A DNA stretch of 10,084 nucleotides from Nanopusillaceae archaeon. Its GTDB lineage: Archaea; Nanobdellota; Nanobdellia; Nanobdellales; Nanobdellaceae. This document shows, piece by piece, positions 3 through 10,084 of this stretch. The notes under the pieces are model-generated. The model was not told where the DNA came from. It ran no database searches and saw only the letters and a program-made list of their open reading frames with translations. The translations under genes were made by a program, and so were the position numbers. The stretch covers positions 1 to 10,084 of the forward strand of contig JBMFJD010000016.1 of assembly GCA_049974095.1 (NCBI GenBank), read 5' to 3'. Within the stretch, counting starts at the first letter, position 1, and each line of letters starts with the position of its first letter.

Positions 3-551
3 GGTACAGGATTTAGATTAGAAATAAGAGGAGAATTTACACCAATAGAAGATATATATTATAGAACATTATTAGAAGATGATCCTTTTAGATTAAGATT
101 TGCTTTAAGAAGGTATCTCGGTACTGGAGAAATAGATCTTCTAGATATATCATTTGATGAGAAAGAGCAATTAGGAGGATATTATGGAAGGATCGTAGAG
201 GTTGATATAAAGGATATTATTGATGATATTATGCTAACTGAAATAAAGAAGAGATCTTATATAGTAGAAAATATATACAAAGTAATAGAAGAGAGACTAT
301 TGAAATATGTTAAGAAGATAACATTATGGACAATTGTTATACCTGCACAGAAAGAATATATAGATATCATAAGAGATAACTTTAGGAAATATAGAATATT
401 AAAAGATCCATATTACGATGATAGAGTAATATTCTATAAAGTATCAAATGAGAATTTAGTAGAAAAATTTGAAGAATTAGGTATACCAGTTATAACATAT
501 AAAACAAAAGAAATAACTACAAAAAACGTAGATTTATCTGAGGAATTTTAA
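3..551 (+). CDS. C-terminal part of a charged (K/E/D/R-rich) cytoplasmic protein of unknown function; the 5' end lies upstream of the window
   Basis: Hand translation shows frame 3 is open from nt 3 (GTGFRLEIRGEFTPIEDIYYRTLLEDDPFRLRFALRRYLGTGEIDLL...) straight into the Met at 231 given in the ORF track. Stop TAA is at 549-551. The listed 106-aa ORF is therefore probably only the tail of a longer gene. No motif recognised. Confidence 0.7.
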   Translation, partial: GTGFRLEIRGEFTPIEDIYYRTLLEDDPFRLRFALRRYLGTGEIDLLDISFDEKEQLGGYYGRIVEVDIKDIIDDIMLTEIKKRSYIVENIYKVIEERLLKYVKKITLWTIVIPAQKEYIDIIRDNFRKYRILKDPYYDDRVIFYKVSNENLVEKFEELGIPVITYKTKEITTKNVDLSEEF

Positions 552-3260
552 CTATTTCTTTATTTGCTTGATTATTTCTTTTATTGATTCGGCAGATTGT
601 TTCCATGCCTCAAACATCCATATAAGTCCTTTAATTATATATGGTCCAAAGAATATAAATAGTACAAGCATTATTATACCACTTACTCCAACTGCTGTTA
701 TCACTTTTTCAAAGAATTGATCTATAGCTGTAAATATACCAATTGTTATTGTTGGACCTGTATATACTTTATTATTATTTATAGATATTGTAAAGTAATA
801 CTTACCATCACTTAATGATACAGGACATGATGCAGATGCTGTTCCATATGCTGGTATATTAACAACATCTGAACATGATTGTAATACTTGTGAACCTAAT
901 CCTAAGAATCCTCCTGAACTTACTATGTCTATTTTGACAACCAATCCACTAGCTGGTACGTCTAATGTATTAGCCAATGTTGCGTTTACATAATAAGTAC
1001 CTGGTGACCATACACCTCCTGTTATTTCATATCCATTAGAAGTATACCATGCTGCATTAGATACTACAACTTTAGTAGTAGCTACTTGTTGTTGAGTTAT
1101 AACACCAGGTCCTTGCCTGTTTGGTGGGAATGTACCTAAGTTCTGTCCATTAGCAGATACTACAAGGTAGAACATTTCTTGATGCAATAGCGAGTTCTGA
1201 TCTGGAGTAAATGATGCACATACTGTTACATTTTGATTTGGTTGTATAGTTACAGTAGTAGTATTAGATCCATATTCATTATTTGCAATGCCACCTTGTA
1301 ATCCTAAGACATTATATCCATATACAGTTACAGTAACTGTTGCTGTTGTTGGATATGGAGATGTTAATATAGCACATCCTTCTGCTGGTATTCCTTCAAC
1401 TAATTGATTTACATATGTTTGATTTCCTTGAGCAAAGTAATATCCTTCTACAGATATTATTGATGTAGGTTGTTGTACTACATTCAATTGTGGTCCTGCA
1501 TAATCAGTTCCTGGTATACCGAATATTTGTCCTACATCTGATGCTACATATTTATAATTAATATATGGTGATTGATAATATACATCGAAGTGATAATTAC
1601 CTGATGATGCAAAGGTAACGGGTAATGATACTTGTTGAGATCCTCCTGATGGTATATTAATATTAAATGATTGTGATGTAATTGCCTGATCTGGAGATAA
1701 TGGTATATTCTTTCTAACTGTTATAGTTACCTGTCCTACATATGTACAGTTCCTTGAATTCACAAAGTATGCTACTGCATCTACTTGTTGTCCTATTTGT
1801 ATTGATGTTATATACGTACCATTTATCTCCCATGCAGTGTATGCTAATGGTGGAGCATCAGTACAATATCCAGCTGTTGTTTGTCCACTTTGTACAGTAA
1901 ATGCTCCAAGTAGAGATTCTGGACCTAAGTTTTCATCTGGTAAATATTGTAGGTCATATTTTGGTAATGCATATACATAATATGCACCTGGTTGTTGGGG
2001 TACAAATGTTATAGTAATATTATAGAATCTTTGAACATTATATGGTTGTGGCGAGAAGTAATAGTTTGCAGACATATCTGTAGTTACTCCTTGATCTCCG
2101 ATTCTATATGATGCTACAGTATTACCATTAACATCTTTAATATATACATATAGAGCCGGACCATATGCACCTCCAGATATAACTGTTAAGTATAGAGGTA
2201 TATTTATAGTAACTGATTGCTCAACCAATGGGTTTTGTGGAGATATTTTTACTTGTCCTATTTGTACAGATACCTGTGGACTTGTAGATACTGTAGTTGC
2301 ATTTTGTGGTGGAGATGAGGCTGGACTTACAGATATAGAACCTACTAATGTCTTAGATCCAATTGTTGAATCTGACCAGTATTGTATTGAATATTTAGGT
2401 TCTATATAAACATAGTATGTTCCTTGAGTTGGAGGTATAAACCATACAGATATATTATAGTATCTCCATGTGTTTGTAGGAGTATAACTAAAGTAATAGT
2501 TTGTAGAAGAATCTGTAGTTATACCTTGTTGTCCAACTCTAAAGTATTGTATTACATTACCAGATGAATCTTGTATATATACATTAAGGTAAGGACCATA
2601 TGGACCTCCAGATATAACATCTAATGCTATTGGTATATATATCGTAACATTCTCACCTGCATGTGGAGATGATGGTACTACAGTTATTGGTCCATTAACA
2701 TTTATTTTAACATCTGGAGATGTAGATAATGATTGATTTGTAGTTGTTGGGGTAGGTGAAGGAGTAGGTGAAGGTGATGGAGTAATACTAGGAACAGTAA
2801 TTGTATATGTTTGTGTACCTAATGTAGTATCTGAACCATCTGCAATATCAACTGCCATTTGTACCTGAACTTGATATGTTCCAGGTTGTAGATTAAGGTT
2901 TACGTAATCGGTTCCAGATATAGGTTGACCATTAAATGAATATGGAATATCACATGATGTAGATGTTAATGAACAAACAGAACCATTAGTACCAGTTCTT
3001 ATTGCATCTATTTGTTGACCTTGGGTATTGTATACAAATACTCTAAAAAATAATCCTCTTCCACATGGAGATATTAATGGTATACAATAACTATTAACAC
3101 CAGAATAAGAATATGATATAATTAGATATGGATTTTGAAATGTAGCATTAAATGAATAAGAATTAGTTGTTTCTGCAGAGTGAATACTATGAGAAAATAA
3201 ACTAATTGAAAATATAATTATTATTACTCCTAGAAATTTCTTCAAAAAAGATAATTTCAT
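552..3260 (-). CDS. Large exported surface protein (902 aa) with a C-terminal membrane anchor and multiple beta-sandwich (Ig/CARDB-like) modules; likely N-glycosylated
   Basis: ATG at 3258-3260. N-terminal signal peptide MKLSFLKKFLGVIIIIFSISLFSHSIHSA/E (nt 3174-3260). PSPSPTPSPTPTTT linker (nt 2715-2786). C-terminal hydrophobic helix AVGVSGIIMLVLFIFFGPYII (nt 633-695) followed by the basic tail KQSAESIKEIIKQIKK. I count 13 N-x-S/T sequons by hand. There are 10 Cys in even-numbered groups. Module signatures such as P-x-x-P-x-x-GE-x-VTI ... G-x-Y-x-[FV] resemble CARDB/Ig-like domains (pattern recognition only). Confidence 0.85.
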   Translation of the reverse strand: MKLSFLKKFLGVIIIIFSISLFSHSIHSAETTNSYSFNATFQNPYLIISYSYSGVNSYCIPLISPCGRGLFFRVFVYNTQGQQIDAIRTGTNGSVCSLTSTSCDIPYSFNGQPISGTDYVNLNLQPGTYQVQVQMAVDIADGSDTTLGTQTYTITVPSITPSPSPTPSPTPTTTNQSLSTSPDVKINVNGPITVVPSSPHAGENVTIYIPIALDVISGGPYGPYLNVYIQDSSGNVIQYFRVGQQGITTDSSTNYYFSYTPTNTWRYYNISVWFIPPTQGTYYVYIEPKYSIQYWSDSTIGSKTLVGSISVSPASSPPQNATTVSTSPQVSVQIGQVKISPQNPLVEQSVTINIPLYLTVISGGAYGPALYVYIKDVNGNTVASYRIGDQGVTTDMSANYYFSPQPYNVQRFYNITITFVPQQPGAYYVYALPKYDLQYLPDENLGPESLLGAFTVQSGQTTAGYCTDAPPLAYTAWEINGTYITSIQIGQQVDAVAYFVNSRNCTYVGQVTITVRKNIPLSPDQAITSQSFNINIPSGGSQQVSLPVTFASSGNYHFDVYYQSPYINYKYVASDVGQIFGIPGTDYAGPQLNVVQQPTSIISVEGYYFAQGNQTYVNQLVEGIPAEGCAILTSPYPTTATVTVTVYGYNVLGLQGGIANNEYGSNTTTVTIQPNQNVTVCASFTPDQNSLLHQEMFYLVVSANGQNLGTFPPNRQGPGVITQQQVATTKVVVSNAAWYTSNGYEITGGVWSPGTYYVNATLANTLDVPASGLVVKIDIVSSGGFLGLGSQVLQSCSDVVNIPAYGTASASCPVSLSDGKYYFTISINNNKVYTGPTITIGIFTAIDQFFEKVITAVGVSGIIMLVLFIFFGPYIIKGLIWMFEAWKQSAESIKEIIKQIKK
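1890..2729 (-). repeat. In-frame tandem duplication of a Cys-free module of about 130-135 aa inside the 902-aa gene (copy 1 nt 2325-2729, copy 2 nt 1890-2288; period 145 aa = 435 nt)
   Basis: Copy 1 (aa 178-312): ...GENVTIYIPIALDVISGGPYGPYLNVYIQDSSGNVIQYFRVGQQGITTDSSTNYYF...YYNISVWFIPPTQGTYYVYIEPKY. Copy 2 (aa 325-457): ...EQSVTINIPLYLTVISGGAYGPALYVYIKDVNGNTVASYRIGDQGVTTDMSANYYF...FYNITITFVPQQPGAYYVYALPKY. The DNA-level echo ggaccatatgGacctccagatataac (from 2593) and ggaccatatgCacctccagatataac (from 2158) is offset by exactly 435 nt. Confidence 0.85.
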
Positions 3261-3262
3261 GA

Positions 3263-3859
3263 TTAGCTATAACAGCTTGGCGCATTCGTAGCTTCACATG
3301 CACTAGCCAATTGTGATATAGTTGATGTCATAAATAAGTATTCTCCATTATATTGACAGAATGTTACATTTTCTCCACCAACATTTACTAATACCACATT
3401 ACCAGGACATACTGCATAATTAATATATGTTGGAGATACTTCAAATATATAGTGTCCAATTTGTACCAATGGTAAAGTTGTATATGCTGGATTTTGTGCT
3501 TGAACTTGTTGTAGCATTGCTTGTCCTTGAGAAGTATCTACATTAATACCAATTGGATTAATTCCATATTGTTGTAATATCTGTCCTACATAATTAGCTT
3601 CCTGTTGTTGGTATGTATAGAAGTATATCTTACCAGTTAATTGTAATGATCCTCCTACTACTTGAGAATTAACTTGTGGTGTATTTACTGGTTGTACATA
3701 TGGTTGTTGTACAGCTACATTATTTACATAAAATAGGGTACTGCCCTGTGTCGTAATATATGCTAACCCTGCTATACCTGCAAGAACTAATAACATAGCT
3801 AATAACTTTTCATCCATAATACTTATATTATATTTAGTATATTTATATTTTCGCTTCAA
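3263..3859 (-). CDS. Signal-anchored, Gln-rich extracytoplasmic protein with a possible degenerate thioredoxin/glutaredoxin-like fold and a C-terminal 4-Cys domain
   Basis: The start listed in the ORF track is TTG (plus-strand caa at 3857-3859), overlapping the upstream stop as TTGA. An alternative ATG at 3815-3817 gives MDEKLLAMLLVLAGIAGLAYI. Single TM helix LLAMLLVLAGIAGLAYI. 22 Gln in 198 aa by hand count. Stop TAA 3263-3265 lies 2 nt before the next gene's ATG. Confidence 0.75.
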   Translation of the reverse strand: MKRKYKYTKYNISIMDEKLLAMLLVLAGIAGLAYITTQGSTLFYVNNVAVQQPYVQPVNTPQVNSQVVGGSLQLTGKIYFYTYQQQEANYVGQILQQYGINPIGINVDTSQGQAMLQQVQAQNPAYTTLPLVQIGHYIFEVSPTYINYAVCPGNVVLVNVGGENVTFCQYNGEYLFMTSTISQLASACEATNAPSCYS

Positions 3860-4371
3860 GATTTTTGAGGTGTGCTATTATCCTTGAATTTTGATAATAA
3901 TTGATCAACATTAGATAATACTTTCAAAAGTTCTTTTCTTTCATCTTCAGAAAGCATATCATATAACTTACAATAACCAGGTTGTAAGGTCTTTTGATTA
4001 ACATAAGGACATTCTTTTGCAAAAGGACAATTAAAAACTCTTAAACCAACCAAAGGAGCCTCGCCATTATTCGCAACCATATAAGGAACTATAACTGTAC
4101 CTGTTTTGGTACATGTAATTCCTGATGGTACTAATCTTTTGACTTTTATTCTTCTAGTATACTTAGTATCCTTATAATTAACTTCAATATTTTTTTCATC
4201 AATATATATAGCTATAACATTCATTTCCTTTAACTGCTTTATTAGGACAGATATTGTAGACATTGGTAAATTGAATTTCTTTGCAAGTTCAGAAATTGTA
4301 ATACCTGGCTGTGAATATATCGCTTGCAGAATTTCGATTAATGTTTTAGTAGAGTCTATCCTACTGATCAT
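3856..4371 (-). CDS. Winged helix-turn-helix (MarR/ArsR-like) DNA-binding regulator with a C-terminal 4-Cys domain
   Basis: The N-terminus TKTLIEILQAIYSQPGITISELAKKFNLPMSTISVLIKQLKEMNVIAI (nt 4204-4344) fits the wHTH pattern I-L-x-x-L-x(3-5)-G-x-T-x-x-E-L-A-x-x-x-x-x-x-x-S-T-[IV]-S-x-x-[IL]-x-x-L. The C-terminal part has C87, C115, C121, C134 (NCPFAKECPY...GYC) and a K/E-rich helix. ATG 4369-4371 overlaps the upstream stop as ATGA. No TM segment. Confidence 0.8.
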   Translation of the reverse strand: MISRIDSTKTLIEILQAIYSQPGITISELAKKFNLPMSTISVLIKQLKEMNVIAIYIDEKNIEVNYKDTKYTRRIKVKRLVPSGITCTKTGTVIVPYMVANNGEAPLVGLRVFNCPFAKECPYVNQKTLQPGYCKLYDMLSEDERKELLKVLSNVDQLLSKFKDNSTPQKS

Positions 4372-4646
4372 GTTACATTAACAATATTATATACCTGTAC
4401 ACAAGATGTATCCCCACATATTAGGGTATTCTTTGCAACTAAACACTGCTCTCCACTAATGTTTTGTGTACATGCATATAAATTGCCATATACATTATAT
4501 ACGTATATATTAAAGCTGCCTATTTGATATGTGCCTACAAGATTTATCTTATGGAAATACTGCTCTCCAATAAAAACCACTATAGAAATAATGAGGAGTA
4601 TTGCTATTAAGATAACCAACAAAGTTTGCTTATTGATTTTCACCAT
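4368..4646 (-). CDS. Small signal-anchored protein with an extracytoplasmic 4-Cys beta-rich domain; first gene of the minus-strand operon
   Basis: ATG 4644-4646. MVKINKQ followed by the TM helix TLLVILIAILLIISIVVFI. The ectodomain carries YGNLYACTQNISGEQC...CGDTSC. Stop TGA 4368-4370 overlaps the next ATG. Confidence 0.7.
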   Translation of the reverse strand: MVKINKQTLLVILIAILLIISIVVFIGEQYFHKINLVGTYQIGSFNIYVYNVYGNLYACTQNISGEQCLVAKNTLICGDTSCVQVYNIVNVT

Positions 4647-4656
4647 AATATAATAT

Positions 4657-4666
4657 TTTAAATAAC
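4657..4666 (+). promoter_or_regulatory. Candidate TATA box (TTTTAAATAA) for the MCM-like gene; implies a leaderless mRNA
   Basis: Centre is about 24 nt upstream of the ATG at 4685, matching the usual archaeal TATA-to-TSS distance if transcription starts at or near the ATG. No SD-like motif lies between. The background is AT-rich, so specificity is limited. Confidence 0.4.
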
Positions 4667-4676
4667 AAATATAAAT
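4667..4676 (-). promoter_or_regulatory. Candidate TATA box (minus strand ATTTATATTT) for the 92aa-171aa-198aa-902aa operon; implies a leaderless mRNA
   Basis: Centre is about 25-26 nt upstream of the ATG at 4646 on the minus strand. It directly abuts the candidate plus-strand TATA box inside a 38-bp divergent intergenic region. Confidence 0.4.
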
Positions 4677-4684
4677 ATTTATTT

Positions 4685-5860
4685 ATGGAAAATGAAACAA
4701 GATTGAAGAACCTGTCTTCAAAAATTTTGAAGTTATTAGATCTATTAGAAAACTATGAGTATGAATATTTAAGATATATAAATAGTATTAATATACCGAT
4801 ATATTCTGATCTAGTAATATTCAAGGAAGATGCTTTAAGTATCTTGGGAGTAGATGACTATAAGTATTTATTAGAAAATGGAATAATTAGAGAGAATATA
4901 TTTAATCCAAGAATTGTAGAAATAGTTAATATAAATAAATTATTGGATATGATCAGTTTGTACAAAGAGATGAAGAAATATTCATTATCAAAAGAAATAC
5001 TACAATCTGATAGGCCATTTTATGAATTATTACCATTAGTATCACCAAATGTAAAGAATACGGATATAATAGAGGTTGTAAAGAAAGTAATGTTATTACA
5101 ACTATTTTCTGGAGACGATAGAGGTTTTAGAACAAGAATACATATAGCTCTAATTGGAGATCCTGGTACTGGTAAAACTTTATTATTACAATGGCAGAGT
5201 GATATAAGTGGAGGATTATATTTATCATTAAGAACTACATCTGCAGGTCTATCTGGCAGCCTAGATCCAGCACAATTTTATAACAATTCACCACCATTAA
5301 TGGCTGCAAATGGAAAAATATTATGTATAGATGAAGCAGATAAGATATCTACATCAGATTTAGATCCATTATTAACTGCAATGGAAGAAGGAAAAGTTGT
5401 TCTAGCTGGTGCAGGATTACATTATGAGTATGAAGCTAAAGTTAGAATTATGTTATCATCTAACAGAAAGAAGTTCAGACCAGAACTAATGGATAGATTT
5501 GATTTAGTTGCATTATTTAGAAAACCATCAAAAAAAGAAACTGCAGACATTGTAGGACATATTATTGAATTTACAAGTGAAGAAAATCAAAGAATTCTAG
5601 AAGAAAGTAAAACAACAATAAATAATTATATGAAGTATGTAGAAAAGTTCTATCCAAAAATCATGGATAATGATGCTGTTAAGGAGGCAATAGCAGATAT
5701 AATAGAAAAGACTGGAGAATCTAGTGTTAGACATACATTAAAATGGTTAAGATTTGCTTATGCATATGCTAAAATAAATAGAGTAAATATAACACCAGAA
5801 ATAGTAAAAGAATTATATGATATGCTAAAAATACAAAGAATAAATCTTACTCAAGAGTAA
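4685..5860 (+). CDS. mcm: Truncated (mini) MCM-family AAA+ ATPase/helicase lacking the canonical MCM N-terminal domain
   Basis: Motif-by-motif match to the MCM catalytic core. LLQLFSG (MCM LLLQLFGG). RIHIALIGDPGTGKT, Walker A, nt 5156-5179 (MCM INILLVGDPGTAKS). TSAGLSGSL (MCM SAAGLTAAV). ILCIDEADK, Walker B, nt 5321-5341 (MCM CCIDEFDKM). LLTAMEEGKVVLAGAGL (MCM IHEAMEQQTISIAKAGI). Sensor-1 SSN at aa 258-260. Arg finger MDRFDL with R271 at nt 5495-5497 (MCM LSRFDL). Sensor-2/lid SSVRHTLKWLRFAYAYAKINRVNITPEIV (MCM TVRQLESLIRLSEAHAKMRLS). Only about 120 aa precede the core, whereas cellular MCMs have about 250-300 aa carrying the OB-fold and Zn finger. Confidence 0.85.
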   Translation: MENETRLKNLSSKILKLLDLLENYEYEYLRYINSINIPIYSDLVIFKEDALSILGVDDYKYLLENGIIRENIFNPRIVEIVNINKLLDMISLYKEMKKYSLSKEILQSDRPFYELLPLVSPNVKNTDIIEVVKKVMLLQLFSGDDRGFRTRIHIALIGDPGTGKTLLLQWQSDISGGLYLSLRTTSAGLSGSLDPAQFYNNSPPLMAANGKILCIDEADKISTSDLDPLLTAMEEGKVVLAGAGLHYEYEAKVRIMLSSNRKKFRPELMDRFDLVALFRKPSKKETADIVGHIIEFTSEENQRILEESKTTINNYMKYVEKFYPKIMDNDAVKEAIADIIEKTGESSVRHTLKWLRFAYAYAKINRVNITPEIVKELYDMLKIQRINLTQE

Positions 5861-7209: not shown

Positions 7210-7641
7210 CTATAGTAATGCTCCTAATATTGCTCCAACACCAAAAACTCCACCTACAAATAATCCAGTAATTCCTTGATTTACTGCATTACCGAATAAT
7301 GTTGCTACATTAGAGAATGATATTGTTATTGGCCCTGTAATTGCGTATGGTGTTTGTACTGATATTAAAAATGGTGATACAAATCCTATTACACCAAATA
7401 TTGCTGCCAATAAAAATATTCCATATAATGGATGTGTATGCAGATAGTCACTAATTGTTGGTATATACCTTTTAACCAAAAATCCTGTTACTAAACCTGC
7501 TAATATTATTGTCATCCATGCTGCTATAGATGTTAGATGCAATATTGCCAATACTATATCTACTACTATTACTGAGGCTATTGCAAATAACAAAAAAGTT
7601 ACAAATTGGCTCGATGTTATTCTATCTAATATTGTTGCCAT
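7210..7641 (-). CDS. Integral membrane protein (about 4 TM helices) ending in a glycine-zipper helix
   Basis: ATG 7639-7641 with a TATA-like box about 25 nt upstream. Hydrophobic segments are FVTFLLFAIASVIVVDIVLAIL, IAAWMTIILAGLVTGFLV, LYGIFLLAAIFGVIGFVSPFLI and the C-terminal GITGLFVGGVFGVGAILGALL (nt 7213-7281). Stop TAG at 7210-7212 is 4 nt before the next ATG. Confidence 0.7.
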   Translation of the reverse strand: MATILDRITSSQFVTFLLFAIASVIVVDIVLAILHLTSIAAWMTIILAGLVTGFLVKRYIPTISDYLHTHPLYGIFLLAAIFGVIGFVSPFLISVQTPYAITGPITISFSNVATLFGNAVNQGITGLFVGGVFGVGAILGALL

Positions 7642-7693: not shown

Positions 7694-10084
7694 CTATAGG
7701 GCTCTTCTTTTATATAAGTAGTATCCAACACCTGCGGCTGCTAATATAGCTAAGAATGCTAATGCTATTGGTAATGGTGCTTGTACTCCAATTGCTGCAG
7801 CTGTAGGAGAAACTGGAGCTGATGGAACAGATGGAACAATTGGAGATGGAGCTGGACCTACAGGAACTACAGTAATGCTAGTAGATGAAACAGTAACTTG
7901 GTATTGATATGAACTAGATAATCCGGATGGATCTTCTGCAGTAATTGTTAATGTACCAGATTCTTGTGGTATGTTCAATCCTACATTTACTGTTTGTCCT
8001 GAATATACTACACCAGAATATATATCTTGAGTACTAGATGATGTTTGATATGTTATAGTTACATATACTGTCTTATATGGACTATATACTGTAAATGTTA
8101 CTGGGAATGGACTTGTATAATTGCTTGGTACTATTATAGATAGTAGTTGTGGTGGTTGCAATGCAATTTGAGATGTTGTGAAACATAGACCTGCAACACA
8201 TGTACCAGAACATGATTGTATATCATTCAATTGATAATATATTCTACCAGTAGAATTATCATATACTATTTGATATTCCGCTATACTTCCATTTGGTGTA
8301 CATACAGGTATTATCATTCCGTTAAATGAGGATAATTGTGATTGATTAGCTGCATTACCTATTACACATCTAAATGGAGCTACTTGTAATAGATACATAG
8401 ATGATGTAGTTCCAGATGTTGTTGGTGTTAATGCATATTGATATACAGATACAGCATCTGGACCACATTCATTAGCAAATAATAATGATGGTACACTTAC
8501 TTGATTCTCATTATATAACGATCCTGCGAAACAGTATTGTCCTGGCATTGCTGGGAATTCCTGAGTAATATTATATACACATTGTCCATTTACTACAGAG
8601 TAATTAACAACCGCTGCTAATGTACTAGATAAACATACATATGGAATACCACATTCGTTTGATACTTGTGGTATATATCCTGTTTGTACAGTAAATGTTA
8701 TAGTTGTTGAATTTGTAGTATTAGCTACATCACTACATGTTATTACCAATGTATTTGTTCCAGGTTGGATTGATACTGGGATAGTATATGGTGTACTTAC
8801 ATTGAATATTTGTTGTAATATTATATTGTTATTATATACTAAGGTACATGAAACTTGTGATTGAACAGTATCATTTACACTAAATGATACATTTACTGAT
8901 CCTCCAACAGTTCTAACAGTTTGTCCTTGTTTTGGATATGTTACATTTATTAATAATTGTGGAGATATTGGTGCAGTTACACATTGTCCGTATGAACAGA
9001 ATGTTCCTGATGGACAGGTTGTTGTACTTACTATTGTTTGATTTACTGTACCTAATGATGTAGGATCTATTGGAGGTACATTTACAGTACAGTAATATTG
9101 TACATATGCTAATGTTGTTGAATTCAAACATATATATCCTGGTGGAGGTACATCGTTATTATTTACACATTGTCCAGATGGTATTGGTACTAATGAACAT
9201 GTTGATGAGTTAAAGTATGTAGCATTTGGATATCCAGTAACCATAGATGGTACTGCTTGTCCTGCAATTAATCCACAACATGTACCTACTCCAGGATATC
9301 CACCCAATGCTTTACAGTATAGATTACATGATGATGCATTATATGCATAAAATATAGATTGTGATGTAATTAATGATAAATTACCAACAATACATGATAA
9401 TTGTACATTGTATACTCCTTGAGTTAATCCTGCTAAGTTTAATGGTACTTGTCCATTATATATTGGTCCCTCATATGTAAATGTTACAGAATTAGATGTA
9501 GATGTAGCTCCTGTAGTAGGACCACATGAGGACATTAAATTAGCAGTTGCAGTACAGGTAACTTGTGTTGGAGTACCAATATAGCCAGATAATGTAAAGT
9601 ATACTGTCGCACTACTACTACTTATTATTGGATATCCAACAGAATATGGTACAGTTGTTGTTGGCTGTATTGATGTAATTTGTAATGATGGAGGAACAAC
9701 TATATTTACGTTTATAGATGAACTTGTTTCATTTACACAGTTATTAGAGTATTGATAAACTACAAGTACTGTAATGTTATATGATCCTGGAGATAGTATT
9801 GTAACATTAAATGGTATTGATTGACCTGCAACAGATGGTGCAAATATACCATTAATATATAATTGTCCATTTAGGTATACTCCAATTGCAATTGTAGATA
9901 GGTTTAATCCTAATTGTGCAAGATTATTTTGTACTTTTAAAGTAAATGTTTGTCCAGCATAGAAGGTAGACCCGTTTGCTGGAGATAATATATTAACAAT
10001 TGGTGCATAACATGCTGTAGTTATTGTATAATTAGATACATTTTGTTGGGGAATTGGTGCTGTTGCTGTAGATAAATTATATGG
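7694..10084 (-). CDS. Very large Cys-rich, sequon-rich surface protein (at least 796 aa in the window) with a C-terminal membrane anchor; the 5' end lies beyond the window
   Basis: The ORF track starts at the Met at 9535. I translated 9536-10084 by hand in the same frame and found 183 further sense codons with no in-phase TTA/CTA/TCA on the plus strand (...APIVNILSPANGSTFYAGQTFTLKVQ...VVPPSLQITSIQPTTTVPYSV...QVTCTATANL-MSSCGPTT). The C-terminus has the S/P-rich stalk PVGPAPSPIVPSVPSAPVSPT (nt 7802-7870), the TM helix APLPIALAFLAILAAAGVGYYL (nt 7715-7780) and then KRRAL. There are 18 N-x-S/T sequons in the last 613 aa by hand count. Confidence 0.85.
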   Translation of the reverse strand, partial: PYNLSTATAPIPQQNVSNYTITTACYAPIVNILSPANGSTFYAGQTFTLKVQNNLAQLGLNLSTIAIGVYLNGQLYINGIFAPSVAGQSIPFNVTILSPGSYNITVLVVYQYSNNCVNETSSSINVNIVVPPSLQITSIQPTTTVPYSVGYPIISSSSATVYFTLSGYIGTPTQVTCTATANLMSSCGPTTGATSTSNSVTFTYEGPIYNGQVPLNLAGLTQGVYNVQLSCIVGNLSLITSQSIFYAYNASSCNLYCKALGGYPGVGTCCGLIAGQAVPSMVTGYPNATYFNSSTCSLVPIPSGQCVNNNDVPPPGYICLNSTTLAYVQYYCTVNVPPIDPTSLGTVNQTIVSTTTCPSGTFCSYGQCVTAPISPQLLINVTYPKQGQTVRTVGGSVNVSFSVNDTVQSQVSCTLVYNNNIILQQIFNVSTPYTIPVSIQPGTNTLVITCSDVANTTNSTTITFTVQTGYIPQVSNECGIPYVCLSSTLAAVVNYSVVNGQCVYNITQEFPAMPGQYCFAGSLYNENQVSVPSLLFANECGPDAVSVYQYALTPTTSGTTSSMYLLQVAPFRCVIGNAANQSQLSSFNGMIIPVCTPNGSIAEYQIVYDNSTGRIYYQLNDIQSCSGTCVAGLCFTTSQIALQPPQLLSIIVPSNYTSPFPVTFTVYSPYKTVYVTITYQTSSSTQDIYSGVVYSGQTVNVGLNIPQESGTLTITAEDPSGLSSSYQYQVTVSSTSITVVPVGPAPSPIVPSVPSAPVSPTAAAIGVQAPLPIALAFLAILAAAGVGYYLYKRRAL

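Follow-up and report, generated by a model that had tools for sequence, protein, structure and literature searches.

A short MCM-type AAA+ ATPase without the MCM N-terminal domain on a probable extrachromosomal element binned with a Nanopusillaceae archaeon

MCM drives replication in archaea and eukaryotes, and its N-terminal collar is regarded as central to how rings form, double hexamers are loaded and DNA is handled. What, then, is to be made of a gene that encodes the motor and no collar? Such a gene lies on contig JBMFJD010000016.1 (assembly GCA_049974095.1), whose 10,084 nucleotides (nt), here called the window, constitute an entire contig of a metagenome-assembled genome (MAG) from Nanopusillaceae, a family within Nanoarchaeales. 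The product, a protein of 391 amino acids (aa) referred to below as the query (P0184, MGC9133602.1), carries only the PGAP label 'AAA family ATPase'. A first-pass annotation made from the sequence had described it as an MCM core with unusual features and had proposed that it might be an element-specific replicative helicase. Here we asked to which ATPase family the query belongs, whether the unusual features are its own, whether the gene is intact and borne by an element, and what the protein may do there. The query is placed by sequence comparison within the MCM clade, belongs with many other short MCMs to a large group that is unstudied, and so is not a one-off, and may on balance serve its element as a replication initiator or helicase.

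An MCM-type motor behind an unrelated N-terminal domain

Family searches agreed on MCM. The Pfam scan matched PF00493 at residues 106-295 with E=1.6e-24 and 86.7 bits (cut-off 23.3), and the next families were AAA (31.9 bits), AAA_5 (31.0), Mg_chelatase (25.1, a match confined to residues 207-260) and Sigma54_activat (17.5). MCM was the top Pfam family in all 15 members of the query's immediate family, the best E value being 9.8e-25 against 1.5e-09 for Mg_chelatase. Within NCBIfam the MCM model NF040949 matched residues 132-331 at 61.1 bits, which is below its curated cut-off of 940 for full-length MCM, with BchI (27.7 bits) and YifB (17.4 bits) as runners-up. When PDB sequences were searched with phmmer, 70 distinct sequences were obtained at E<=0.01; the best 60 of the 70 were all MCM2-9 or archaeal MCMs, with MCM6 (2.1e-16) and SsoMCM (3F9V, 2.2e-15) among the top matches. 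Orc1/Cdc6 was absent from the Pfam, NCBIfam and best PDB and Foldseek matches of the query, whose winged-helix-like unit (below) is moreover at the N-terminus, while Orc1/Cdc6 initiators have a winged helix at the C-terminus. Defence-system protein models (PADLOC) gave only 14-bit partial matches, and a role in anti-phage defence was dropped as having no PADLOC match.

Structure prediction points the same way. The AlphaFold2 model of the whole protein, built from a 15-sequence alignment, had a mean predicted local distance difference test score (pLDDT) of 84.9 and a predicted TM-score (pTM) of 0.76. Its best 50 Foldseek matches in the PDB were all MCM chains (E 3.7e-17 to 5e-15), with none from the Mg-chelatase, MoxR or YifB families among them, and the TM-score was 0.71 when normalised to the AAA-only MCM chains 6sko_6 and 8q6p_5. 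The model indicates that the P-loop domain and lid pack as in MCM, although the predictor may lean towards MCM.

Every motif listed by the first-pass annotation was found at its exact string position in the 391-aa open reading frame (ORF; Table 1). Across the family the invariant residues comprise G158, P160, G161, T162, G163, K164 and T165 of Walker A; D216, E217, D219 and K220 of the Walker B region; sensor-1 N260; and the Arg finger R271. The full catalytic set (K164, D216/E217, N260, R271 and R349) is thus unchanged in 15 of 15 homologues. The query further contains the MCM-specific blocks LLQLFSG (137-143), AMEEGKV (232-238) and VLAGAGL (239-245), and the family keeps LLQLFS, AMEEG and an SRFD-type DRFD followed by a hydrophobic residue. 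Since every residue required to bind and hydrolyse ATP and to sense the adjoining subunit is invariant, it is a safe inference that the protein would be an active, oligomeric AAA+ ATPase.

What surrounds the motor is not that of a cellular MCM. No member of the 15 gave a Pfam match to MCM_N or MCM_OB (PF17207, PF14551) or to MCM_lid (PF17855), and in the model there is no C-terminal winged helix, the chain ending 10 residues past the last lid helix. Since the N-terminal domain, the C-terminal winged helix, the hairpin lysine (discussed below) and the NCBIfam cut-off all fail, the query is not a full-length replicative MCM. The first-pass annotation had taken the protein for an MCM, with Mg-chelatase, MoxR or Lon-like ATPases as the refuting alternative, and had reported the oligonucleotide-binding (OB)-fold/Zn N-terminal domain as missing; the bit scores and fold matches uphold the former, and the latter stands as well, the first 100 residues being modelled with another fold. 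Its figure of about 120 unrelated N-terminal residues was right as to the unrelated stretch and too long, as MCM homology begins at about residue 100-106 and leaves a unique N-terminus of ~100 aa.

Modelled alone (residues 1-108, AlphaFold2, pLDDT 87.2), this N-terminal domain consists of a long helix (2-34), a strand (43-46), a second helix (47-64), a beta-hairpin 'wing' (68-70/77-80) and a last helix (83-106). It had no Pfam match. Foldseek searches gave weak matches only, none below E=0.04 in either PDB or BFVD: those in the PDB were mostly helix-turn-helix (HTH) or winged-helix proteins (SarA at E=0.04, BigR, MarR-family proteins, cullin WH-B, RTP, TubR and LexA), and those in BFVD were phage HTH proteins at E>=0.065. 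The sole PDB profile match, snRNP E at E=0.04, was treated as noise. To call the modelled domain winged-helix-like is therefore as far as one may go.

It is an acidic domain. Its net charge in the query is -3 (pI 4.97), and over the 15 homologues it ranges from -5 to +1 and is negative in 13, while the strand-helix-wing core has a net charge of -1 to -6 in all 15 members. Conserved polar residues include the invariant E22 and E79, as well as D42 and R69 (90% each). Because the domain is acidic, a role in protein contact or oligomerisation is more likely than binding of origin DNA through a recognition helix. Of the two functions that the first-pass annotation had offered for the N-terminus, partner binding consequently fits the better and origin binding is the less likely.

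A pattern, 'GW..D...L..GII...Y.L', is common to this domain and the N-terminal regions of other short MCMs; hhalign gave a probability of only 7.5% and hence no support for homology between them. A winged-helix-like pattern of this kind, seen in many short MCMs, also occurs as 'W..D...L..G.V...S..Y.L' behind a Cys-rich, Zn-ribbon-like start in a 357-aa AAA+ protein (L017:7761-8834) on a contig binned as bacterial (Dehalococcoidales).

A clade of short-spacer MCMs and the loops they have trimmed

A profile search of 1.84 billion cluster representatives returned 6,026 matches at E<=1e-3, and the best 150 of these were mostly proteins of 240-550 aa, which outscored canonical MCMs of ~650-700 aa. 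Ten of the short proteins were scanned and all ten had MCM as their top Pfam family. The distance from Walker B to the Arg finger is 57-61 residues in the short proteins (58 in the query) against 71-74 in canonical MCMs. A neighbour-joining tree of the AAA+ core was calculated from 240 columns and 164 representatives, retained at <=85% identity from a 208-sequence core alignment, with 49 bootstraps. The tree is unrooted, as the possible outgroups, ClpX-like proteins (L019, L020) and an AAA+ ATPase (L018), were too distant.

This tree placed 93 of the 94 short-spacer representatives (244-613 aa) in one clade with at most two long-spacer sequences within it. All 49 bootstraps recovered a clade of 92-93 short-spacer and 1-3 long-spacer sequences (11 long-spacer sequences in a single replicate), and the query family, monophyletic in 47 of 49, is nested inside. 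The short-spacer clade is accordingly defined here by a length of ~240-610 aa, a Walker B to Arg finger distance of 57-61 residues and grouping in the AAA+-core tree. No description of it was found in the searchable literature. A missing N-terminal domain and a short spacer, together with a shortened helix-2 insert (h2i) and external hairpin, are traits of the whole clade. The first-pass annotation had described the first two for the 391-aa protein; they are not peculiar to it.

The extent of trimming can be given as medians for the query family, other short MCMs and canonical MCMs, in that order: 25, 23 and 29 residues for the h2i segment, 11, 12 and 17 for the external hairpin segment, and 12, 13 and 26 from sensor 1 to the Arg finger. 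Counted inclusively from the sensor-1 Asn to the Arg finger, the query itself has 12 residues, which agrees with the much shorter spacer noted at first pass. The pre-sensor-1 hairpin, by contrast with these loops, is equal in length to that of SsoMCM in the HMMER alignment, where VVLAGAGL of the query stands opposite VSIAKAGI of SsoMCM (3f9v). The replacement of the conserved lysine, likewise reported at first pass, was confirmed as Gly242. This hairpin-tip column holds Lys in 41 of 42 canonical MCMs and in 35 of 82 other short MCMs, and Gly in all 12 representatives of the query family. Of the odd features, only the change from Lys to Gly is specific to the query family. Four positions past the lost lysine, the subgroup to which the window belongs has H, K or R and the P0012-15 subgroup has Asp; the window subgroup also retains an aromatic residue in h2i at the canonical Trp/Phe position.

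A second group of MCMs without the N-terminal domain was seen outside this clade (P0016, P0017, P0018, P0027, P0113, P0116 and P0183; ~400 aa). These proteins keep the long spacer, the hairpin lysine and an MCM_lid signal, and have 'SRFHL' at the Arg finger. Because of these retained features the group looks like an independent loss or replacement, and MCM-N would then have been lost more than once.

Genomic context was examined for two short-clade members. P0199 lies among mobile-element genes (a DUF3987 helicase, a DNA methylase, MazG and TnpB), and P0038 among chromosomal genes (FeoB, TruB, Lhr) and two small ORFans.

The gene, its locus and the element

The 15 homologues share the same start as the query and a similar length (385-410 aa). 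The ratio of non-synonymous to synonymous substitution rates (dN/dS) is 0.068 against the orthologue in the related contig L001 (94% nt identity) and 0.085 against that in L002 (82%); by part, it is 0.07-0.11 for the N-terminal domain and 0.07-0.08 for the AAA+ core. The conserved start and length and the low dN/dS indicate that the gene is intact and under purifying selection, and no truncated remnant. An upstream exon or frameshift that would supply an MCM N-terminal domain, the possibility raised at first pass, was ruled out: the space it would occupy is filled by a conserved minus-strand gene for a small membrane protein (Table 1), and no plus-strand ORF of >=50 aa exists within 4368-4646.

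The 38-nt gap between these two divergent genes contains two TATA-like boxes that face opposite ways: TTTTAAATA spans 4656-4664, and TATAAATA spans 4670-4677 (minus-strand reading). Each lies ~25 nt upstream of one of the two opposed start codons, a distance that suggests leaderless transcripts on both sides. Beyond the membrane-protein gene lies a gene for a 171-aa protein of the winged helix-turn-helix (wHTH) type, and this order, with both genes on the strand opposite to the short MCM, recurs in related contigs. The wHTH gene is syntenic with the short-MCM gene in L001, L002, L003, L004 and L024. It adjoins the short-MCM gene in every element of the window type, and the Cys-rich half of its product reads CTKTG...CPFAKECP...C. 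The wHTH protein is a candidate regulator or DNA-recognition partner.

Table 1. Features of the window discussed in the text (aa, amino acids; residue numbers refer to the 391-aa protein)
Feature	Coordinates	Strand	Basis or remark
106-aa ORF, tail of ~237-aa protein	231-551	+	cut by window end
902-aa S/T/N/Q/Y-rich protein	552-3260	-	N-terminal signal/membrane segment, C-terminal membrane anchor
171-aa winged-HTH protein (MarR/HTH_24-type), Cys-rich C-terminal half	3856-4371	-	PF13412 E=6.3e-09, PF01047 E=1.6e-07
92-aa single-pass membrane protein, divergent	4368-4646	-	ORF; 93-96-aa syntenic genes in L001-L004
AT-rich divergent promoter region, 38 nt, putative	4647-4684	.	read from the sequence
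Gene for 391-aa short MCM-like AAA+ protein	4685-5860 (incl. stop codon)	+	ATG-initiated ORF
N-terminal domain, residues 1-100, acidic, winged-helix-like	4685-4984	+	AlphaFold2 model, weak fold matches
MCM-type P-loop (AAA+) domain, residues 106-295	5000-5569	+	PF00493
Walker A GDPGTGKT, residues 158-165, Lys164	5156-5179	+	exact string
Walker B CIDEAD, residues 214-219, Asp216/Glu217	5324-5341	+	exact string
Pre-sensor-1 beta-hairpin, residues 237-250, tip AGAG	5393-5434	+	model strands 237-242, 245-250
Sensor 1 SSN (258-260, Asn260) through spacer to Arg finger DRFD (270-273, Arg271)	5456-5503	+	string, alignment
Helical lid, residues 296-381	5570-5827	+	model helices 299-318, 329-343, 347-365, 371-381
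Sensor 2 SVRH, residues 347-350	5723-5734	+	V348, R349 invariant
143-aa very hydrophobic Gly/Ala/Ile-rich protein	7210-7641	-	143-146 aa in L001, L002, L003, L024
613-aa ORF, no stop before window edge	7694-10084	-	matches 959-aa protein in L001

Both terminal ORFs of the window run open to its ends and are cut there, so that it represents only part of a larger element. Four syntenic contigs of 20.6, 28.0, 28.7 and 31.1 kb carry orthologues at 83-96% or 53-58% identity. They encode S/T/N-rich membrane-anchored proteins of 850-960 aa, small membrane proteins and the wHTH protein, and otherwise ORFans (as are the ORFs of L001), with Hjc and ParB_N on some and a PALP-domain gene in L001 and L002. 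Neither a tRNA nor an integrase was found in the ~21 kb read per syntenic contig, nor was a polymerase, a primase or a further helicase; neither the window nor these four contigs showed housekeeping genes or tRNAs. A second MCM or a primase was not found in window-type elements; a 361-aa L003 protein proved unrelated to the primase of L021 (below).

Close relatives were sought more widely. Among 50,697 records of phages and archaeal viruses, megablast with the window gave nothing, nor did tblastn of the neighbouring 902-aa protein against phage and archaeal-virus records, and protein matches in deposited phage and archaeal-virus genomes were distant MCMs only. IMG/VR held no close relative and one distant locus only. 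Among 185,579 species-representative genomes (GTDB) there was again no close relative, the matches being cellular-type MCMs at 27-36% identity, with the best value of 36% over partial matches. On the simplest reading, the window comes from an extrachromosomal element, and probably from a virus, which ended up in the bin of a nanoarchaeal MAG. The same MAG contains a second short MCM, P0005 (MGC9133277.1), 58% identical to the query and located on a 59.9-kb contig; this may reflect either another related element within the bin or a copy that has integrated.

A more distant relative is L021, a 45.7-kb ENA contig (k141_576568) that carries the short MCM P0013, 45-48% identical to the query. Its segment L021:16193-20367 holds genes for a 435-aa primase, a PriS-PriL fusion, and for an MCM of at least 778 aa that is very divergent and has a Cys/His Zn-type motif, GAPQTGKS, and ITRIDF replacing SRFD.

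In the gene for the 902-aa protein, positions 2056-2213 are duplicated at 2491-2648 (73% nt identity), which yields two similar Ig-like modules. Its product gave no significant Pfam, PHROG or phage match and one sub-threshold Ig-like Pfam match, and is probably a glycosylated surface or virion protein. The hydrophobic 143-aa protein, which had no family match, is possibly a membrane or virion structural protein. Two large proteins on the related contigs, L001:12626-15187 (-, 853 aa) and L021:13380-15431 (-, 683 aa), are alike in their C-terminal ~70 residues, with the common ending ...DVR.F..N.YG.DY.Q.NGLTYA...IYMY.G. They may mark a structural-gene module that adjoins the short-MCM gene in both element types.

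Possible roles and comparison with known systems

The reading that we favour on balance, with limited confidence, is that the short MCM is the replication initiator or helicase of its element and recruits the replisome of the host. It is the only recognisable replication gene on elements of the window type, which favours a replication protein. In archaeal viruses and plasmids an MCM is often the one replication protein present, and it is presumed to bring in the replisome of the host (PMC6563490, PMC4889955, PMC6972569); MCM-N is reported to be stimulatory, not strictly needed, for unwinding by archaeal MCM (PMC2715239). The protein would be a minimal MCM: an AAA+ motor of P-loop domain and lid, with the full catalytic set and Arg271 as a trans-acting Arg finger, in which the ~100-aa acidic domain would stand in for the OB-fold/Zn collar. 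Subunits would form a ring through AAA+ contacts alone, with ATP sites at the interfaces, and the ring would melt or unwind the element's DNA, or both, its helicase activity and polarity being presumed. The N-terminal domain would serve oligomerisation or contact with a partner, which could come from the host or be the neighbouring wHTH protein, and not sequence-specific DNA binding. The fork may then be passed to host primase, polymerase and clamp, as the element showed no further gene for replication.

Several observations weigh against this reading. The hairpin lysine needed for unwinding (SsoMCM K430A) is an invariant Gly in the query family, and in the model the shortened h2i and external-hairpin segments form coil or short helices and no hairpin. 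The acidic N-terminal domain offers no obvious surface for origin recognition, and neither convincing direct or inverted repeats near the gene nor origin-like repeats in the window were found. The L021 element has two MCM-family proteins, so the short one need not be a helicase. Finally, the reading of each related contig covers ~21 kb, and the link to a Nanopusillaceae host comes from metagenomic binning only. The first-pass proposal of an element-specific replicative helicase therefore divides: the protein does appear to be borne by an element, given the ORFan-rich syntenic contigs free of housekeeping genes and tRNAs, while its action as the replicative helicase is inference only, the Gly hairpin and the full-length MCM of L021 leaving room for a non-helicase role.

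Such a role is conceivable, though we think it improbable, as an ATP-dependent initiator, loader or recruiter: a ring or partial ring would bind element DNA or the wHTH protein and recruit a true MCM, either the host's or, in P0013-type relatives, the element's own. The protein would be Orc1/Cdc6-like in function and not homologous. The invariant Gly at the DNA-contacting hairpin position, the shortening of all three MCM-specific insertions and an acidic N-terminal domain suited to protein-protein contact would fit such a recruiter. L021, which has the full-length divergent MCM and primase in addition, also has Asp at the position four past the lysine, where the window subgroup has H, K or R; the correlation of this Asp with a second MCM and primase involves two lineages only and is suggestive. 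However, no full-length MCM was seen in window-type elements (~21 kb each), Pfam and the best PDB and Foldseek matches showed no link to Orc1/Cdc6, ~43% of other short-clade members retain the hairpin lysine, and MCM-AAA cores without MCM-N do unwind DNA (PMC2715239).

A broader proposal, which we regard as unlikely, concerns the short-spacer proteins as a whole. They might be an old, separate branch of MCM and not truncated cellular MCMs, forming a minimal ring without the OB/Zn collar and with reduced DNA-contacting loops that either loads by another route, for example from monomers on DNA with the aid of a small winged-helix-like adaptor, or acts as an initiator recruiting a true MCM. The nanoarchaeal Gly family would then be the most derived form.

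A role outside replication, in which the protein would be an AAA+ machine of the helix-2-insert/pre-sensor-2-insert group and work as a MoxR- or chelatase-like chaperone or remodeller, perhaps in virion assembly or transcription control, seems quite improbable. Its 'RPELMDRFD' segment is as short as in non-MCM relatives, there is no demonstrable DNA-binding surface, and weak secondary matches to Mg_chelatase (25 bits), BchI (27.7 bits) and Sigma54_activat were obtained. Yet MCM is more than 50 bits ahead of these families in every member, the chelatase match spans residues 207-260 only, the top 50 structural neighbours are all MCMs, the blocks LLQLFS, AMEEG and DRFD plus hydrophobic residue are conserved, and no defence-system family was matched. 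Least probable of all, and very much so, is an ordinary chromosomal Nanopusillaceae gene or a decaying, N-truncated copy of a cellular MCM: NCBI places the contig in a Nanopusillaceae MAG and the short-clade protein P0038 sits among FeoB, TruB and Lhr, but the window and its four syntenic contigs lack housekeeping genes and tRNAs, the 185,579 species-representative genomes hold no close relative (best 36% identity, partial matches), strong purifying selection and a length of 385-410 aa in 15 homologues oppose decay, and the family is monophyletic and far from cellular MCMs.

Whether or not the short MCM proves to be an initiator or helicase, it belongs to a widespread natural family that has the motor only, with three MCM loops trimmed and, here, the hairpin lysine dropped. 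Such proteins are a ready-made test of what the AAA+ tier does alone. We know of hardly any viruses or plasmids of Nanoarchaeota, and the partners of the short MCM would reveal how an element of this kind captures the replisome of a host whose genome is very small. No new principle is involved, as mobile-element MCM cores without MCM-N have been documented before.

Compared with cellular MCMs (SsoMCM 3F9V, MCM2-7), to which it is 21-27% identical over ~300-335 aligned columns, the query has the same P-loop domain, both Walker motifs, both sensors, an SRFD-type Arg finger and a pre-sensor-1 hairpin of equal length, and its lid is predicted to pack as in MCM, in a model that may be biased towards MCM. 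It differs in having no OB-fold/Zn N-terminal domain, no MCM_lid Pfam signal, no C-terminal winged helix and Gly for the hairpin Lys, and it has ~6 residues fewer in the external hairpin, ~4 fewer in h2i and ~14 fewer from sensor 1 to the Arg finger. In layout it also recalls SV40 large T antigen and papillomavirus E1, in which a small N-terminal accessory domain precedes an AAA+ hexameric motor with a pre-sensor-1 hairpin, and in which one protein starts replication, unwinds DNA and recruits the host replisome. The analogy is functional only: large T antigen and E1 are superfamily-3 helicases with basic origin-binding domains, whereas the query is an ATPase of the MCM clade (superfamily 6) with an acidic N-terminal domain.

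The MCMs of archaeal viruses and plasmids (TPV1, BJ1, HFTV1, HATV-3, MFTV1 and the Altiarchaeum virus; Methanocaldococcus and haloarchaeal plasmids) are the main or only replication protein of their elements. They are only 22-33% identical to the query and were recruited from host MCMs (PMC6563490, PMC6972569); the query falls in the separate short-spacer clade. The two MCM genes examined are much longer than the query gene: that of the Altiarchaeum virus has 2,334 nt, and that of TPV1 is divided into an N-terminal part and a C-terminal one of 1,665 nt. Cch-type 'MCM-like' helicases (SCCmec, integrated mobile genetic elements of Thaumarchaeota, pT26-2 plasmids of Methanococcales) and DUF3987 phage helicases are distant MCM relatives that serve as replication proteins of mobile elements (PMC6563490, PMC4889955, PMC6972569). 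The query, in contrast, matches PF00493 directly and, in the Pfam scan, no Cch- or DUF3987-type family at E<=0.1.

BcMCM, encoded by a prophage of Bacillus cereus, has no MCM-N; it is active as a 3'->5' helicase, and its ATPase is stimulated by single-stranded DNA (PMC2715239). Like the query, it is an MCM-AAA core from a mobile element in which an unrelated segment replaces the usual N-terminus (PMC2715239). However, that segment is primase-like, binds single-stranded DNA and holds a Zn atom, and the host is bacterial (PMC2715239); the N-terminus of the query is a 100-aa acidic winged-helix-like domain with no Cys/His cluster, and the host is archaeal. BcMCM and the other mobile-element MCM-like helicases are the closest documented architectural analogues of the short MCM, which is set apart from them by its small acidic winged-helix-like N-terminal domain, by loops that are reduced and by belonging to a short-spacer clade of its own kind.

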